Below are positions 1-38,891 of a stretch of DNA of 38,891 nucleotides, piece by piece. Under the pieces are notes generated by a model that worked only from the letters and a program-made list of their open reading frames with translations, was not told the DNA's origin and did no database searches. Where the stretch lies: positions 1 to 38,891 of the IMG/VR virus record IMGVR_UViG_2576861092_000011; one strand, 5' to 3'. The stretch comes from a virus (taxonomy: Duplodnaviria > Heunggongvirae > Uroviricota > Caudoviricetes). The position numbers and the translations under genes are program-made. Every line of letters starts with the position of its first letter. Position 1 is the first letter of the stretch.

Positions 1-1158
1 ATGCTCACCGTTAAGCAGATTGAAGCAGCTAAGCCGAAAGAAAAACCATACCGCCTTCTCGATGGTAATGGCCTGTACCTTTATGTCCCTGTATCCGGGA
101 AAAAGGTATGGCAGCTTCGCTACAAGATTGACGGTAAGGAGAAAATCCTGACCGTCGGAAAATATCCGCTTATGACTTTGCAGGAAGCAAGGGATAAAGC
201 ATGGACCGCGAGGAAAGACATCTCGGTTGGCATCGATCCGGTAAAGGCGAAAAAGGCTTCGTCTAACAACAATTCATTTAGTGCGATTTACAAGGAATGG
301 TACGAGCACAAGAAGCAAGTCTGGTCAGTAGGCTATGCAACTGAACTTGCAAAAATGTTTGATGCCGACATTTTACCTATCATCGGCGGCCTTGAAATTC
401 AGGATATTGAGCCGATGCAACTGCTGGAAGTAATCCGCAGATTTGAAGATCGCGGTGCAATGGAGCGAGCCAACAAAGCCCGCAGAAGATGCGGCGAGGT
501 TTTCCGTTACGCTATTGTCACTGGTAGGGCTAAATATAACCCGGCACCTGACCTTGCTGACGCCATGAAGGGATACCGCAAGAAGAACTTCCCGTTTTTA
601 CCTGCCGACCAGATCTCGGCATTCAACAAAGCACTTGCAACATTTTCAGGAAGTATCGTATCGCTCATTGCCACCAAGGTTTTACGCTACACTGCCCTAA
701 GAACGAAAGAGCTTCGTTCCATGCTATGGAAGAACGTCGATTTTGAAAACAGGATTATCACCATCGACGCCAGTGTGATGAAGGGACGCAAAATTCATGT
801 GGTCCCGATGTCAGACCAGGTGGTTGAACTTCTCACTACGCTAAGCTCAATCACCAAACCAGTCTCAGAGTTTGTTTTTGCCGGGCGCAACGATAAGAAG
901 AAGCCAATCTGCGAGAACGCGGTATTGCTTGTGATCAAACAAATCGGCTATGAAGGTCTGGAAAGCGGTCACGGATTCAGGCATGAATTCAGCACGATTA
1001 TGAACGAGCACGAATGGCCTGCCGACGCCATTGAAGTGCAACTGGCACATGCCAACGGCGGTTCTGTACGTGGAATTTACAACCATGCTCAGTATCTCGA
1101 TAAGCGCAGAGAAATGATGCAGTGGTGGGCGGACTGGCTTGATGAAAAGGGGGAGTAA
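1..1158 (+). CDS. intS: P4-type tyrosine integrase (prophage integrase), 385 aa
   Basis: Full-length ORF. N-terminus MLTVKQIEAAKPKEKPYRLLDGNGLYLYV is typical of P4-family integrases; C-terminal HGFRHEF and IYNHAQY carry the catalytic H-x-x-R and Tyr. Matches my recollection of E. coli K-12 KplE1 IntS. Window begins at its ATG. Confidence 0.9.
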   Translation: MLTVKQIEAAKPKEKPYRLLDGNGLYLYVPVSGKKVWQLRYKIDGKEKILTVGKYPLMTLQEARDKAWTARKDISVGIDPVKAKKASSNNNSFSAIYKEWYEHKKQVWSVGYATELAKMFDADILPIIGGLEIQDIEPMQLLEVIRRFEDRGAMERANKARRRCGEVFRYAIVTGRAKYNPAPDLADAMKGYRKKNFPFLPADQISAFNKALATFSGSIVSLIATKVLRYTALRTKELRSMLWKNVDFENRIITIDASVMKGRKIHVVPMSDQVVELLTTLSSITKPVSEFVFAGRNDKKKPICENAVLLVIKQIGYEGLESGHGFRHEFSTIMNEHEWPADAIEVQLAHANGGSVRGIYNHAQYLDKRREMMQWWADWLDEKGE

Positions 1159-1348
1159 TTGGCATAGCCACACTGGAAACAAAAGAAGTTAATCTCTCAA
1201 AATACCAAATGATCAAGTTATATGATAACAGGCGTGAAAATATACATAGAATGACAGTCAACCGCTAGATAACATCTAGTTAGTCTATATAGATAATATC
1301 AACTAAATCTGATAGACTCCCGCTTCCCGTAGAATATGGATTTTTAGC
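1159..1348 (+). promoter_or_regulatory. AT-rich int-oac intergenic region, putative oac promoter, with short palindromes (CTAGATaacATCTAG, TCTATATAGA)
   Basis: 190 bp non-coding AT-rich stretch directly upstream of oac start; palindromes read directly from the sequence. No promoter elements assigned. Confidence 0.3.
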
Positions 1349-2416
1349 ATGAAACATATACAATCTTTAGATGGTGTGAGAGGTATTGCGGTGCTCATTG
1401 TAATGCTTTTTCATGCCAAAGTTTCAGGATTTTCTCTTGGTTGGTCTGGAGTTCCGCTGTTCTTTTGCTTATCTGGTTTCTTAATTACCTCAATCCTTAT
1501 CGAGGATAAAGACTCTGGTTTTAGTAACTATATTAAACGATTTCTTATAAATAGATCGCTTAGAATATTCCCGTTATTTTATGCTTACCTACTTGTTAAC
1601 TTTATTCTTCTAATTGCAACTGGGAAACCAACGGATGGTTATTTGTGGTTTATAACTTATCTACAAAACTATTATATAGGAATAAATGTTACAACACCTG
1701 GAATTTTGGGGCACACCTGGTCTCTTGCAGTGGAAGAACAATTTTACTGGCTTTGGCCTCTATTCATATTTTTCATAAACAAAAAGAATATGAATCTGAT
1801 TTTTATCATACTAATAATAACATCAAGTATATCAAGATATTTTATATTTCAAATCACTGATGGAAACCCATACATTGTAAATGTAACTCTTATCAGTTGC
1901 ATTGACATGTTAGTTCTTGGTGCTCTGTTTTCAAAGATAAAAGATGATAAGTACGCATATGAATCAGGATTTTTAACTTTTATAGCAGGTGTTGGGCTGG
2001 TTCTTAATGGAATAAATTCTGTTGGTCTTAATGCTTTTTGGAACCCTGTAGATTGGGCTGGGAAATGCTGGTATATGTTTACAGCGTTTGGGATGATTTT
2101 TTCATCTGCAATTTTTTTCATTTACAAGTGGAGTGTGCTAGGGAAAAAACAAATAATAACAAAAGCATTATCATTAAAGCCATTAACATTTACAGGAAAG
2201 ATAAGTTATGGTTTGTATATGTGGCATTTGCTGTGTTTTTCAATTGCAAACAAAATGTCCTCCTTGTTTGGGGTAAACAATAATGCTGTGATAATAGCAT
2301 GTGGGTTTGCTATCGCATATATAGTATCAATTGCATCATACTATCTTTTTGAAATACATTTTCTTAAATTAAAAAGAAAAACCAATAGAAATGAAGACAA
2401 TTTAGTTACAGTATAA
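1349..2416 (+). CDS. oac: Acyltransferase-3 family integral membrane protein, probable O-antigen O-acetyltransferase (lysogenic conversion)
   Basis: 355 aa, multi-pass hydrophobic; N-terminal motif LDGVRGIAVLIVMLFH typical of OafA/Oac acyltransferases. Markedly AT-rich versus flanking phage DNA. Sits between int and tailspike as in Sf6. Confidence 0.8.
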   Translation: MKHIQSLDGVRGIAVLIVMLFHAKVSGFSLGWSGVPLFFCLSGFLITSILIEDKDSGFSNYIKRFLINRSLRIFPLFYAYLLVNFILLIATGKPTDGYLWFITYLQNYYIGINVTTPGILGHTWSLAVEEQFYWLWPLFIFFINKKNMNLIFIILIITSSISRYFIFQITDGNPYIVNVTLISCIDMLVLGALFSKIKDDKYAYESGFLTFIAGVGLVLNGINSVGLNAFWNPVDWAGKCWYMFTAFGMIFSSAIFFIYKWSVLGKKQIITKALSLKPLTFTGKISYGLYMWHLLCFSIANKMSSLFGVNNNAVIIACGFAIAYIVSIASYYLFEIHFLKLKRKTNRNEDNLVTV

Positions 2417-2447
2417 AAATAGGGCGGGGAAACCGCCCTATTTTTAT
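2416..2447. terminator. Bidirectional Rho-independent terminator between convergent oac and tailspike
   Basis: Stem AGGGCGG / CCGCCCT with loop GGAAA, flanked by an A-run on one side and a T-run on the other (aaaat-agggcggggaaaccgcccta-tttttat). Confidence 0.75.
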
Positions 2448-4159
2448 CTATCCTCTCTCCACGCCTGCACGAAACATGTAACATTGATGTTTGATACTCC
2501 ATTTCCTGTGGTTGTATCATACACTCGAGCAATGGCAGTTCCACTGCTATGGTAAGTGTCAAAGCTCACTGCGTACTTGAATGGTGATGGCATAGTATTG
2601 GAGTGAAAATCTGGAACCGCCATTGCATATCTTGCATAGAATCCAAAGTTAATTATGTCTCCAGATTTTAAAGTAAGAATGTTTGTATAGTTAGGGGAGT
2701 TTGATATCTTCTCGTCAACACGTATTAGCCTCCCATTACCTTGGATAGTAATTACTGTGAATATTCGATTTGGATCATTGAGATAAACAACAGCTTCATC
2801 ACTGATAATTAGGTGACCTATTGTGCCATCGTCGTTGTAGATTTGAGGGTCGTTTATACGTACTACAGCGTTACCCCTAACCCGGAACAGGTAGGCATTT
2901 GCCCCTGCAGCGTTAACCCTGTTGAATGTCGGGGAGTTAAATGTAACCTCAGAACTAGAGGCGACCACGATAGCCTGGCTTCCTGCTGTAATTTTCCCGT
3001 TTGCAACGTCCATTTCGAAGTTAGGTTGATTAAATATGATTCCTCTTGAGTTCGTATCTATCTGCAGGAAATAAGCATTGGCGGACCCGTTATGTCCCAT
3101 GTTAAGCGCGTTGAATATCTGGTTGCTAGCGCCAGAAACTTTCACGGCATAAGCCGTCCAGTTTGCAACATAACACCCATTGAACACGTTTTGAATAATT
3201 GTTCCGTTACTGGATAGGTTAATCCCGATTCGGTTGTTATTGCACCTCATATTGTTATAAATATTTGAAAAATCAGCATATCCAGCGTTGTAACCAATAT
3301 CAAAGAAATCGAGATAAAGGTTGTTAAACTCACAGTTAACTGCCTTTCCGCAAAAAGACATGTCTATTCCGACCCCGCTACCAACAGGAGGACCGCCAGC
3401 AACAGATCCGTTAACTTGGAGATTCATGTTTGATATAGTAATCCCTCTAACGTCAGAGCCCTCAGGCTTTATTCCGATCGTGTTTATAGGAACGTTAACA
3501 ACTGTTGATGTTATGGATTCACCAGTTATGCTAGTTTTATTTTTTAACTCAAAATTACCGCTCCATACTCCATTAGGCACCTTCAGTAGACCATTGGCCT
3601 CACCTGTGGCAACGGCAATGTTGACAGGGTTTACGTTTTCATTTGTCGCCCCGTAACCACGGATATCACCAATTCTCTGATAGTCATCAACAGATATAAA
3701 ATCATGCACTGTCCTTCCATCGGTAATGCCAACCATGGAAGAACCTATTGATGATGCAAGACGCTGCTCAAGCTGATCCGGGTCGTACTTCAGTACATTC
3801 GGAAAATAAAACTGCTGCGCACCGTACGCATCATAAACAGCCATAGAATGGCCTTGCACGGTAACGAATTTGGCAATCTGTCCATTATATACAGGGTAAC
3901 CAGCAGCGTTAATGATGATTGGTTGCGAAACAGGAACGTGAGAGCCGTCTTCGCTCTCCATATAAACCTGAATCTGGTTTTCAGGATTTACCGGATCAGT
4001 GTCAATTTTTCCTATATAAATTTTGCCATTGGCAACCGCTTTAAAAGAACGTGCCATAGTGAAGAGTTGCGAAGGCATGCTTACCACAACATTTGCAGTG
4101 ATATCTGACATTTCATTGCTCCAGACGAATGATATGATGCAACCATGATGTGATTGCAT
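2444..4159 (-). CDS. Tailspike protein: P22 gp9-like N-terminal head-binding domain plus distinct beta-helix receptor-binding/O-antigen-depolymerase domain
   Basis: N-terminal ~110 aa ([46 protein letters not shown]...[15 protein letters not shown]...NVLKYDPDQ) closely matches the P22 gp9 head-binding domain; the rest is Asn/Gly/Ser-rich repetitive sequence typical of right-handed beta-helix. 3' part is AT-rich. Confidence 0.9.
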
Positions 4160-36688: not shown

Positions 36689-36856
36689 ATGCACTTCCGA
36701 GTCACAGGTGAATGGAATGGAGAGCCATTCGACAGGGTTATCGAAGCAGAGGACATCAACGACTGCTATAACCACTGGATGATATGGGCGCAGATAGCAC
36801 ATGCAGACGTAACCAATATTCGAATTGAAGAACTGAAAGAACACCAAGCCGCCTGA
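36689..36856 (+). CDS. Small hypothetical protein (55 aa)
   Basis: Below track cutoff; ATG with GGAG RBS; stop lies within the downstream terminator stem. Confidence 0.35.
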   Translation: MHFRVTGEWNGEPFDRVIEAEDINDCYNHWMIWAQIAHADVTNIRIEELKEHQAA

Positions 36857-36869
36857 TGGCGGTTTTTTA
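36848..36869 (+). terminator. Rho-independent terminator at the end of the early-left operon
   Basis: GCCGCCtgatGGCGG followed by TTTTTTAT. Confidence 0.65.
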
Positions 36870-36878
36870 TTGCCTGAT

Positions 36879-36894
36879 TTGCAGGTTCGATTCC
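36879..36894 (+). other. 16-nt tRNA-like fragment (TTGCAGGTTCGATTCC), resembling a tRNA T-arm, upstream of torI
   Basis: Exact match to the T-stem/loop region of tRNA-Arg(CCU) (argW) as I recall it; not a complete tRNA. Confidence 0.45.
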
Positions 36895-36913
36895 CTATTC
36901 GGAGATAGCACTC

Positions 36914-37114
36914 ATGCAACACGAACTACAACCTGATTCACTGGTTGATTTGAAATTCATCATGGCTGATACTGGCTTTGGTAAAACCTTCATCTATGAT
37001 CGGATTAAGTCCGGCGACCTGCCAAAAGCCAAAGTTATCCACGGGCGAGCAAGATGGTTATATCGTGACCATTGTGAATTCAAAAATAAGCTCTTAAGCC
37101 GCGCCAATGGGTAA
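36914..37114 (+). CDS. torI: Excisionase / recombination directionality factor, TorI-like (AlpA/HTH_17 family)
   Basis: 66 aa MQHELQPDSLVDLKFIMADTGFGKTFIYDRIKSGDLPKAKVIHGRARWLYRDHCEFKNKLLSRANG; winged-helix excisionase pattern; matches my recollection of E. coli TorI at the prophage end distal to intS. Confidence 0.85.
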   Translation: MQHELQPDSLVDLKFIMADTGFGKTFIYDRIKSGDLPKAKVIHGRARWLYRDHCEFKNKLLSRANG

Positions 37115-37182
37115 AATAGCGGGTAAAATATTTTTCACATCTAAAAAATACCATTCCAATCAATCCCCTGCCGCGCCAAGTA

Positions 37183-37202
37183 GATGTCTGCAGGGGACAC
37201 CA
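37183..37202 (+). other. Putative attR core: copy of the 3' end of tRNA-Arg (argW)
   Basis: GATGTCTGCAGGGGACACCA; the last 15 nt equal the recalled argW 3' end including CCA, 18 of 20 overall. Lies between torI and host DNA. Confidence 0.55.
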
Positions 37203-37643
37203 GATACCCTTCAAACGAAATCTACCTTCACCCCGTAAAAGATGGGTTTGGCAGCACACTTGCCTTATATCTACTCATTTTTACTGCAACAGGTTGAAAT
37301 CTCAGCACTGTCAGAAAGCGCTGATGACTAAACAGCCCTGGGCCGGGCGATGTAACCATCACACAGAATCCTGATAGCGAAATATGGCGTGACTCGATAC
37401 TTCACTCCGCAATGCATTCCTTGATGAATTCGCAGGACCGTGATACACGGGACAGGTCACTGAATGACGACAATGTCCTGGAAATCAGCGAACCGCGCAT
37501 CTGAAGTACATTTGAGCGACTGTACCAGAACATGAATGAGGCGTTTGGATTAGGCGATTATTAGCAGGGCTAAGCATTTTACTATTATTATTTTCCGGTT
37601 GAGGGATATAGAGCTATCGACAACAACCGGAAAAAGTTTACGT

Positions 37644-38891
37644 CTATATTGCTGAAGGTACAGGCGTTTCCATAACTATTTGCTCGCGTTTTTTACTCAA
37701 GAAGAAAATGCCAAATAGCAACATCAGGCAGACAATACCCGAAATTGCGAAGAAAACTGTCTGGTAGCCTGCGTGGTCAAAGAGTATCCCAGTCGGCGTT
37801 GAAAGCAGCACAATCCCAAGCGAACTGGCAATTTGAAAACCAATCAGAAAGATCGTCGACGACAGGCGCTTATCAAAGTTTGCCACGCTGTATTTGAAGA
37901 CGGATATGACACAAAGTGGAACCTCAATGGCATGTAACAACTTCACTAATGAAATAATCCAGGGGTTAACGAACAGCGCGCAGGAAAGGATACGCAACGC
38001 CATAATCACAACTCCGATAAGTAATGCATTTTTTGGCCCTACCCGATTCACAAAGAAAGGAATAATCGCCATGCACAGCGCTTCGAGTACCACCTGGAAT
38101 GAGTTGAGATAACCATACAGGCGCGTTCCTACATCGTGTGATTCGAATAAACCTGCATAAAAGACAGGAAAAAGTTGTTGATCAAAAATGTTATAGAAAG
38201 ACCACGTCCCCACAATAAATATGACGAAAACCCAGAAGTTTCGATCCTTGAAAACTGCGATAAAATCCTCTTTTTTTACCCCTCCCGCATCTGCCGCTAC
38301 GCACTGGTGATCCTTATCTTTAAAACGCATGTTGATCATCATAAATACAGCGCCAAATAGCGAGACCAACCAGAAGTTGATATGGGGACTGATACTAAAA
38401 AATATGCCGGCAAAGAACGCGCCAATAGCATAGCCAAAAGATCCCCAGGCGCGCGCTGTTCCATATTCGAAATGAAAATTTCGCGCCATTTTTTCGGTGA
38501 AGCTATCAAGCAAACCGCATCCCGCCAGATACCCCAAGCCAAAAAATAGCGCCCCCAGAATTAGACCTACAGAAAAATTGCTTTGCAGTAACGGTTCATA
38601 AACGTAAATCATAAACGGTCCGGTCAAGACCAGGATGAAACTCATACACCAGATGAGCGGTTTCTTCAGACCGAGTTTATCCTGAACGATGCCGTAGAAC
38701 ATCATAAATAGAATGCTGGTAAACTGGTTGACCGAATAAAGTGTACCTAATTCCGTCCCTGTCAACCCTAGATGTCCTTTCAGCCAAATAGCGTATAACG
38801 ACCACCACAGCGACCAGGAAATAAAAAAGAGAAATGAGTAACTGGATGCAAAACGATAGTACGCATTTCTGAATGGAATATTCAGTGCCAT
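37644..38891 (-). CDS. cscB: Sucrose:H+ symporter (LacY-family oligosaccharide permease), host gene
   Basis: 415 aa, 12-TM MFS pattern; matches my recollection of E. coli CscB (MALNIPFRNAYYRFASSYSFLFFISWSLWWSLYAIWLKG...). Window ends at its start codon. Confidence 0.85.
   Translation of the reverse strand: MALNIPFRNAYYRFASSYSFLFFISWSLWWSLYAIWLKGHLGLTGTELGTLYSVNQFTSILFMMFYGIVQDKLGLKKPLIWCMSFILVLTGPFMIYVYEPLLQSNFSVGLILGALFFGLGYLAGCGLLDSFTEKMARNFHFEYGTARAWGSFGYAIGAFFAGIFFSISPHINFWLVSLFGAVFMMINMRFKDKDHQCVAADAGGVKKEDFIAVFKDRNFWVFVIFIVGTWSFYNIFDQQLFPVFYAGLFESHDVGTRLYGYLNSFQVVLEALCMAIIPFFVNRVGPKNALLIGVVIMALRILSCALFVNPWIISLVKLLHAIEVPLCVISVFKYSVANFDKRLSSTIFLIGFQIASSLGIVLLSTPTGILFDHAGYQTVFFAISGIVCLMLLFGIFFLSKKREQIVMETPVPSAI

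Follow-up and report, generated by a model that had tools for sequence, protein, structure and literature searches.

Organization of the locus

The DNA analyzed here is virus record IMGVR_UViG_2576861092_000011 of IMG/VR; the whole stretch of 38,891 nucleotides (nt) is referred to as the window. It holds a complete prophage of the HK620/Sf6/KplE1 type, integrated in the tRNA gene argW and lacking attL, and represents a further member of the known family of IntS/TorI modules at this site. Such modules consist of the integrase IntS, the recombination directionality factor (RDF) TorI or HkaC, and the attP site between them (PMC2951348, PMC3509656). The left end of the prophage is formed by intS (1..1158, + strand), an open reading frame (ORF) with 97-98% nucleotide identity to genes annotated 'prophage integrase IntS', and by this reading position 1 of the window is the A of the intS ATG. 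The excisionase TorI, a protein of 66 amino acids that is 100% identical to proteins annotated TorI, is encoded by torI (36914..37114, + strand). This gene reads towards the attR core, and intS, at the prophage's other end, reads inwards. Two short blocks of argW sequence flank torI, and the one upstream of it, which we term the T-arm box, is the main subject of this work.

A strain with an unoccupied site served as the reference for argW, and the context of attL was taken from related lysogens; the best matches to the window in the E. coli collection were partial (97.9% and 99.5%). At the unoccupied site argW ends in ...GGCTAATTGCAGGTTCGATTCCTGCAGGGGACACCA, directly followed by GATACCC, with GATACCCTTC as the next sequence downstream. 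A related lysogen has argW...CTGCAGGGGACACCA-TTTATCAGTTCGC... as its attL, and the ATG of its intS lies 161 nt downstream of the end of argW. This is consistent with the placing of intact argW just upstream of position 1 in an earlier note on this DNA. ARAGORN detected 0 tRNA genes over the whole window, and Rfam returned no tRNA match at E<=10 between 36500 and 37450. As ARAGORN finds no tRNA gene in the window, the two blocks are fragments.

The T-arm box, TTGCAGGTTCGATTCC (36879..36894, + strand), is an exact copy of the part of argW that comprises the variable loop, T-stem and T-loop (16/16), with GTTCGATTCC as its central part at 36885-36894. Downstream of torI the string GATGTCTGCAGGGGACACCA occupies 37183-37202 (+ strand). 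Its first five nt, GATGT, are phage-specific (GATGTC versus GATTCC in argW), and its remainder, 37188-37202, is identical in 15/15 positions to the 3' end of argW, the part that includes the 3' T-stem, acceptor and CCA. With up to two mismatches allowed, the 16-mer and the 15-mer each have one match in the window, versus 0.02 and 0.08 expected, so that a chance match is excluded for both blocks. The two exact blocks abut in argW, with one C in common, and a gap of 293 nt that includes torI lies between them in the window. The earlier note had reported both strings, their resemblance to argW and a gap of about 290 bp that includes torI, all of which we confirm, with the match of the downstream string comprising its last 15 nt.

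The downstream block is the attR core

The block CTGCAGGGGACACCA (37188..37202, + strand) is the attR core of an IntS/TorI module of the HK620/Sf6/KplE1 type; that it is the likely attR core had been supposed in the earlier note. The chromosome of empty-site strains is homologous from 37188 onwards, and phages and other lysogens are homologous as far as 37200-37202, with 37202 as the last position of the phage matches. When the window is aligned with attB and with five attP sites of phages, it equals the left half of the HK620 attP joined to the right half of attB. The phage C arm (..GATGTC) is found to the left of the core, and the displaced 3' end of argW with the chromosomal flank is found to its right. 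The published core of KplE1 is CTGCAGGGGACACCAT, with 16 nt (PMC2951348), and CTGCAGGGGACACCA(T) is annotated as the core in the HK620 and Sf6 records. Note that in the flank of the window the CCA is followed by G, not T, which leaves an identity block of 15 nt versus 16. Virions of HK620, Sf6 and other phages have genomes in which torI, core and intS are joined in this order.

To the right of the core, 37203..37643 (+ strand) is bacterial DNA from the 3' side of argW with 100% identity to empty-site strains, in which argW is directly joined to this same sequence. It is followed by a gene for a cscB-type sucrose/oligosaccharide permease of the major facilitator superfamily (37644-38891, - strand). 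The window thus fixes the true right boundary of the prophage at 37202 and not at the upstream 16-mer, and torI belongs to the phage. The attR itself is ordinary and has been described before.

In place of the tRNA sequence TTCGATTCC, the left side of the core carries a phage-derived core-type half-site C, GTAGATGTC (37180..37188, + strand), which reads TTCGATGTA or TTAGGTGTC in relatives. The phage-specific bases to the left of TGCAGGG are GATGTC, GATGTA or GGTGTC in these relatives, and Erwinia phage Eho49 and Salmonella phage g341c contain the perfect inverted repeat GGTGTC-TGCAGGG-GACACC. From this symmetry we infer a 7-bp overlap, TGCAGGG (37189-37195), that is adjoined by a B' arm, GACACCA (37196-37202). 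In addition, the sequence GGGTAAAATAGCGGGTAAAAT at the 3' end of torI (37109..37129, + strand) contains two direct GGGTAAAA repeats. This motif has four matches in the window versus 0.71 expected, two of which lie within this segment, and a repeat of the GGGTAAAA type is annotated as an attP repeat in the HK620 record. The mapped arm-type sites of IntS, the P' sites in attL, have a common TAAA motif (PMC2951348), and we consider the repeats at 37109..37129 the likely IntS arm-type sites of the P arm. An attR of 135 bp was enough for excision in vitro (PMC3509656); the primer CTCTTAAGCCGCGCCAATGG, at which this fragment starts, corresponds to position 37091 of the window.

The attR core is also spanned by an ORF for 43 amino acids (37107-37238), in the position of hkaB of HK620 and gene 17 of Sf6. 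The 3' part of this ORF is swapped for bacterial sequence on integration, so that its phage and prophage forms differ.

A T-arm box at the left edge of the module

The box is present in the same place, upstream of a torI homologue, in the genomes of HK620, Sf6, N7, Kapi1 and other phages. Since it is found in virion genomes, it is phage DNA and not the other half of the bacterial 3' end that was displaced by integration. The comparison with sequenced phages of the Sf6 type, as proposed in the earlier note, located both box and core in the phage. The notion of a 'split' tRNA half does not agree with this, nor with the outcome of a search of 5,426 complete E. coli genomes, among which 0 had an unsplit arrangement of terminator, box and core without torI. 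Furthermore, the attP of most relatives keeps its own degenerate T-loop, TTCGATGTA, immediately before TGCAGGG, so that the two pieces overlap in what they copy. Recombination between the two 16-bp repeats would leave a deletion scar of the type argW-T-arm-torI, and the same 5,426 genomes contained 0 of these.

Within the prophage the box is situated between the last terminator of the early-left region and the ribosome-binding site of torI, 6 nt before the latter. The final gene of the early-left region is an ORF for 55 amino acids (36689..36856, + strand) that is common to lambda-type prophages with a different xis-int module; in other strains the same ORF is found 5' of lambda-like xis-int modules at ybhC and torS. 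An intrinsic terminator-like hairpin with a T-run (36846..36870, + strand) is located directly upstream of the module boundary, and by direct reading the Shine-Dalgarno sequence of torI is the GGAG at 36901..36904 (+ strand). Relatives keep the order of box, N4-11, (G)GAG and ATG. To the left of the box the sequence is unrelated between lineages and genera, and within E. coli there are three different upstream genes, each ending in a terminator-like hairpin that is followed by the conserved ATTGCCTGATTTGCAGG.... As conservation starts at the box and the sequence to its left varies, the box marks the left edge of a portable torI-attP-intS module. Of the roles suggested in the earlier note, an att remnant or a part of an extended attP arm, the kinship to the tRNA stands and is not due to chance. 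A part in excision receives no support from the position of the box, about 200 bp to the left of the 135-bp attR that suffices for excision in vitro (PMC3509656); the box may act in integration.

Conservation of the box

Homologues of torI were gathered by protein similarity, from one genome per species and from phage records, and 20 lineages selected in this way were compared, eight with the box and 12 without it. The box is found upstream of torI in E. coli, Salmonella (g341c), a Citrobacter-type lineage, Serratia, Pantoea, Edwardsiella, Pantoea stewartii and Erwinia. The sequence GTTCGATTCC is unchanged in seven of these eight lineages, and the eighth (L018) has one extra T. For the torI coding sequence of the same eight the mean nucleotide identity is 76%, the longest invariant run is 9 nt, and 21% of the third-position columns are invariant. 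This comparison indicates purifying selection on the central 10 nt across genera, and their invariance does not agree with the decaying remnant that had been considered in the earlier note.

In E. coli the box region matches the tRNA at 16/16 positions; the figures are 17/18 for Serratia (TTCCAGGTTCGATTCCTG) and 15/16 for the Citrobacter type, and the flank of the E. coli box retains TTGCAGG as an additional tRNA match. We read this as a longer segment derived from a T-arm, whose edges drift and whose centre appears to be held by selection. In Erwinia phage Midgardsormr38 two tandem CAGGTTCGATTCCC copies, 16 nt apart, precede the excisionase gene, where the other lineages have one.

A scan of viral contigs with the TorI alignment yielded 80 loci. 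In each of them TorI was of the E. coli type and 100% identical, and the loci report on polymorphism within E. coli only. The viral scan for an alternative T-loop in the context of the leader (GTTCGAATCC..GGAGATA) retrieved mostly phage tRNA genes and no context of a torI leader. As a by-catch of the motif scan, a low-GC viral contig (L135 2223-2294) was found to encode a tRNA-Arg(CCU) that has the T-arm of argW (TTGCAGGTTCGATTCCTGCAGGGG) and no encoded CCA.

Possible functions and origins of the box

The HK620 and Sf6 records annotate the equivalent of 36869-36907 as a promoter for 'phage integration', pI, with a cII site TTGCCTGATTTGC, here at 36870..36882 (+ strand). In such a cII-activated promoter for the integration transcript, TTGC-N5-TTGC would be the activator site and the box would make up the interval from -35 to -10. 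Lambda-type prophages with the same upstream ORF and terminator do have TTGCGTGTAATTGC, which we take to be the pI cII site of lambda, in the corresponding place before xis, and the torI homologue of an Arsenophonus relative is preceded by a lambda-like TTGCGTG...TTGCGTGTAATTG. The spacing of the TTGC motifs, however, is N5 as opposed to N6 at the equivalent position in the lambda-type prophage, and the window contains 5 such N5 patterns versus 3.55 expected, a number in line with chance. About 25% of the E. coli loci have TTAC in place of the first TTGC, and in other genera the box is conserved but the half-sites and the proposed -10 (CCCTAT) are not. No sigma-70-like promoter was found here on the + strand, and a promoter in this place would presumably yield excisionase along with integrase, which is not what lysogenization calls for. 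We therefore regard the annotation of HK620 as unsupported here and a pI promoter as improbable; what defines a cII-dependent promoter of the lambda pI/pRE type, TTGC-N6-TTGC around a -35 region together with a usable -10, both kept among relatives, is absent from this region. An operator for the autoregulation of torI seems slightly more improbable still. The box contains GTTCG, and the five TorI sites mapped in attL of KplE1 are 8-mers such as CAGTTCGC with cores GTTCG, GATCG and GTCCG (PMC2951348); TorI represses PintS from sites of the CAGTTCGC type, and the two box copies of Midgardsormr38 would fit an operator as well. In a matrix built from the five mapped sites, however, the box scores 3.7 and true sites at least 9.7, in one built from 25 mapped and homologous sites it scores -2.2 and true sites at least 6.3, and 746 to 3,268 other 12-mers of the window equal the score of the box in these matrices. 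The base after GTTCG is C or T in 25/25 TorI sites and A in every box, and the conserved part of the box runs through ATTCC, a sequence that TorI sites lack. TorI binds cooperatively to clustered sites, usually about 11 bp apart, with the consensus (C/T)(A/G)G(T/A)(T/C)CG(C/T); the box deviates from this consensus and is a single copy in E. coli.

It is highly improbable, in our view, that the box acts in the RNA of the torI leader, be it as a T-arm-like hairpin, as an anti-Shine-Dalgarno stem or as an N-terminal coding extension of torI. The UUCC of the box can pair with the GGAG of the ribosome-binding site in all lineages, but the RNAalifold consensus consists only of this 4-bp UUCC/GGAG stem, with -1.25 kcal/mol and no compensatory change. 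The T-stem is not conserved, the z-score of the single-sequence fold is -1.16, and no Rfam family reaches its threshold. As for the coding extension, most lineages have the box in the reading frame of torI (..G-S-I-P..), but E. coli has a TGA at 36875-36877 and no in-frame start codon, and three lineages (L016, L023, L024) have a broken frame. The remaining explanation is that the box has no function and is left over from an ancestral or secondary att site, or from an event that joined torI to attP-intS, for example an exchange mediated by IntS at the junction of B arm and overlap. The box is clearly derived from a tRNA, its flanks have decayed in a lineage-specific manner (TTG in E. coli, CCTG in Serratia and Pantoea, CC(C)TGT in Edwardsiella), and it ends at the inferred strand-exchange boundary or at most 2 nt from it. 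The 12 lineages without a box, and its position outside an attR substrate sufficient for excision in vitro (PMC3509656), also favor a relic. What speaks against it is the conservation of the 10-mer, whose invariance would be unlikely under neutrality, given the 21% of invariant third positions (0.21^10, about 2e-7). Moreover, the box is all-or-none across lineages, with no half-decayed copies, and no remainder of a tRNA 3' end is left beside it, where local alignment gives scores of 3-5, the same as the null obtained for real ribosome-binding-site regions. A relic thus accounts for the origin of the box and not for its invariance, and we consider it somewhat unlikely as the full explanation.

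The possibility of a complete but decayed copy of the tRNA 3' end, in which the acceptor stem would have turned into the Shine-Dalgarno sequence, was assessed by aligning the 15-25 nt after the box with TGCAGGGGACACCA. The scores were 3-5, and the null, obtained from 67 real pre-ATG regions of the window, had a mean of 3.85, which led us to reject such a copy.

Several further observations were made on this region. Arsenophonus nasoniae (L026, about 2440-2500) has TTGCGTGAGATTTGCGTGTAATTG before its torI homologue, close to the TTGCGTGTAATTGC of lambda-type prophages, and in some lineages of the module a genuine cII-type promoter may take the place that the box has in E. coli. A weak promoter-like site is found on the - strand inside torI (37025-36996), with a -10 that is not conserved in HK620. 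In the leader (36884-36913) the length differences between E. coli, Midgardsormr38 and Serratia are multiples of three, possibly by coincidence. Rfam gave a sub-threshold match to STnc130, an enterobacterial small RNA, on the - strand (36837-36964; 24 bits versus a gathering score of 55). This match is antisense to the start of torI and to the box, and it is driven mostly by the bidirectional terminator.

A half-site mimic as the preferred reading

The invariant sequence GTTCGATTCC equals the 10 bp of argW, and hence of attB, that lie directly 5' of TGCAGGG, the inferred position of the overlap. With this position the 10 nt would constitute the B arm of attB, adjoining the 7-bp crossover region. 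It would also explain why the two blocks abut in argW, as the boundary of either block would be the junction of B arm and overlap in the recombination site and not a physical split. The reading that we prefer, with a probability of roughly 45%, is that the box is a selected mimic of an attB half-site, which would be bound by the core-binding part of IntS and could be bridged to the arm repeats. The core-binding and catalytic domains of IntS would bind the box in the manner of the attB half-site, and IntS that is anchored where torI ends, on the GGGTAAAA arm repeats, could bridge to it and so loop out torI. Such a loop could damp the expression of excisionase by read-through in the lysogen. Alternatively, the box might take part in the integrative complex on attP. 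For excision it is probably dispensable.

Some published data can be connected with binding of IntS to the box. IntS is a heterobivalent integrase, and the lysogen produces it constitutively (PMC2951348). When argW was disrupted in a way that leaves the core intact (argW::kan), lysogeny of Kapi1 fell from 100% to 13.5% (bioRxiv 10.1101/2021.04.09.439263), so that attB sequence to the left of the core matters; this result lends indirect support to binding of IntS at the box. The C arms of attP retain TTCGAT, and their only differences from the tRNA are in the 3 nt that adjoin the overlap. A more specific version holds that in the HK620/Sf6/KplE1 family the box is a decoy that is clamped by IntS, which would silence torI in the lysogen or, until they are required, occupy those domains of the attP complex that capture attB. 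This version appears unlikely to us. Control of the RDF is an open point of this widespread module family, an excision switch that is unexplained (Panis et al., PMC2951348). An invariant 10-bp element 6 nt before the ribosome-binding site of torI is a candidate site for such control, and a decoy of this kind, if true, would add a previously undescribed layer to it.

A number of points weigh against a half-site mimic. The box is wholly absent from 12 of the 20 lineages, where the upstream sequence is unrelated, and it is hence not essential to the module. The base that follows the box is C in most lineages versus T in attB. The position of the overlap was derived from the symmetry of the inverted repeat and from nothing else, and the descriptions of IntS, TorI and IHF sites in PMC2951348 and PMC3509656 omit the box. 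The hosts that were sampled all appear to have the same tRNA T-loop, so that they offer no co-variation between box and B arm. Finally, sequences from the motif-based viral scan agree with the conservation, but having been selected by the motif they were not counted.

A possible cargo downstream of intS

In the DNA that follows intS (1166-2600), an ORF that starts at 1349 has the look of a membrane acyltransferase. Among the matches listed from the 5,426 complete E. coli genomes, none reached past 1-1165 into this segment. The ORF may represent an uncommon cargo for the modification of O-antigen.

Comparison with known systems

The module of KplE1 (CPS-53), HK620 and Sf6 agrees with the window in the core CTGCAGGGGACACCA, in the order intS ... 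torI-attR, in a TorI that is 100% identical, in the GGGTAAAA repeats and in the box upstream of torI. The window differs from KplE1 in the csc (sucrose) variant of the argW flank, with an identity block of 15 nt versus 16.

The GenBank record of CUS-3 (CP000711) contains the same 16-mer, TTGCAGGTTCGATTCC, and is 100% identical to the window over the 55 nt to its left. Unlike the window, this record (CP000711.1) takes the 16-mer as 'attL core' and 'attR core', ends there and has no torI. In UTI89 the right end of the prophage is 100% identical to the CUS-3 record over 809 nt, and directly beyond the point where the record ends it continues with torI, the real core and dsdC. The boundary in the CUS-3 record is thus probably about 310 bp short, and the 16-mer probably not the crossover site. 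Together with argW at attL the 16-mer makes up a direct repeat that is perfect over 16 bp, a pitfall for annotation, and because it was taken as the att core the reference record of CUS-3 is without an excisionase gene. The attR core of UTI89, CTGCAGGGACACCAT (L039 2298-2312), is one G shorter than the copy in attL and argW, and the missing G falls within the inferred overlap. The loss of this G could impair precise excision. After such a loss no perfect flanking repeat is longer than the 16-mer, which may be why the boundary of CUS-3 was placed there. The box has been in the databases for long, since HK620, under two annotations that we judge incorrect or unsupported, and in the searchable literature we found no text that quotes its sequence.

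With respect to lambda, the box resembles pI in being placed between the last early-left terminator and the excisionase gene, and the TTGC repeats can be aligned in part. It is unlike pI in the N5 spacing and in that half-sites and -10 are not conserved, but a tRNA-like 10-mer is conserved instead. The core-type half-sites (B, B', C, C') of heterobivalent tyrosine integrases such as lambda Int consist of an arm of about 9-10 bp that adjoins a 7-bp overlap, and the box has the same sequence as the putative B arm of the attB in argW. In contrast to those half-sites it is an orphan, with neither overlap nor partner arm and about 290 bp from the real core, and we know of no described precedent for an orphan half-site box inside phage DNA. 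The invariance of the box across genera, together with its identity to an arm of attB, constitutes a modest new observation in this otherwise well described family of modules.

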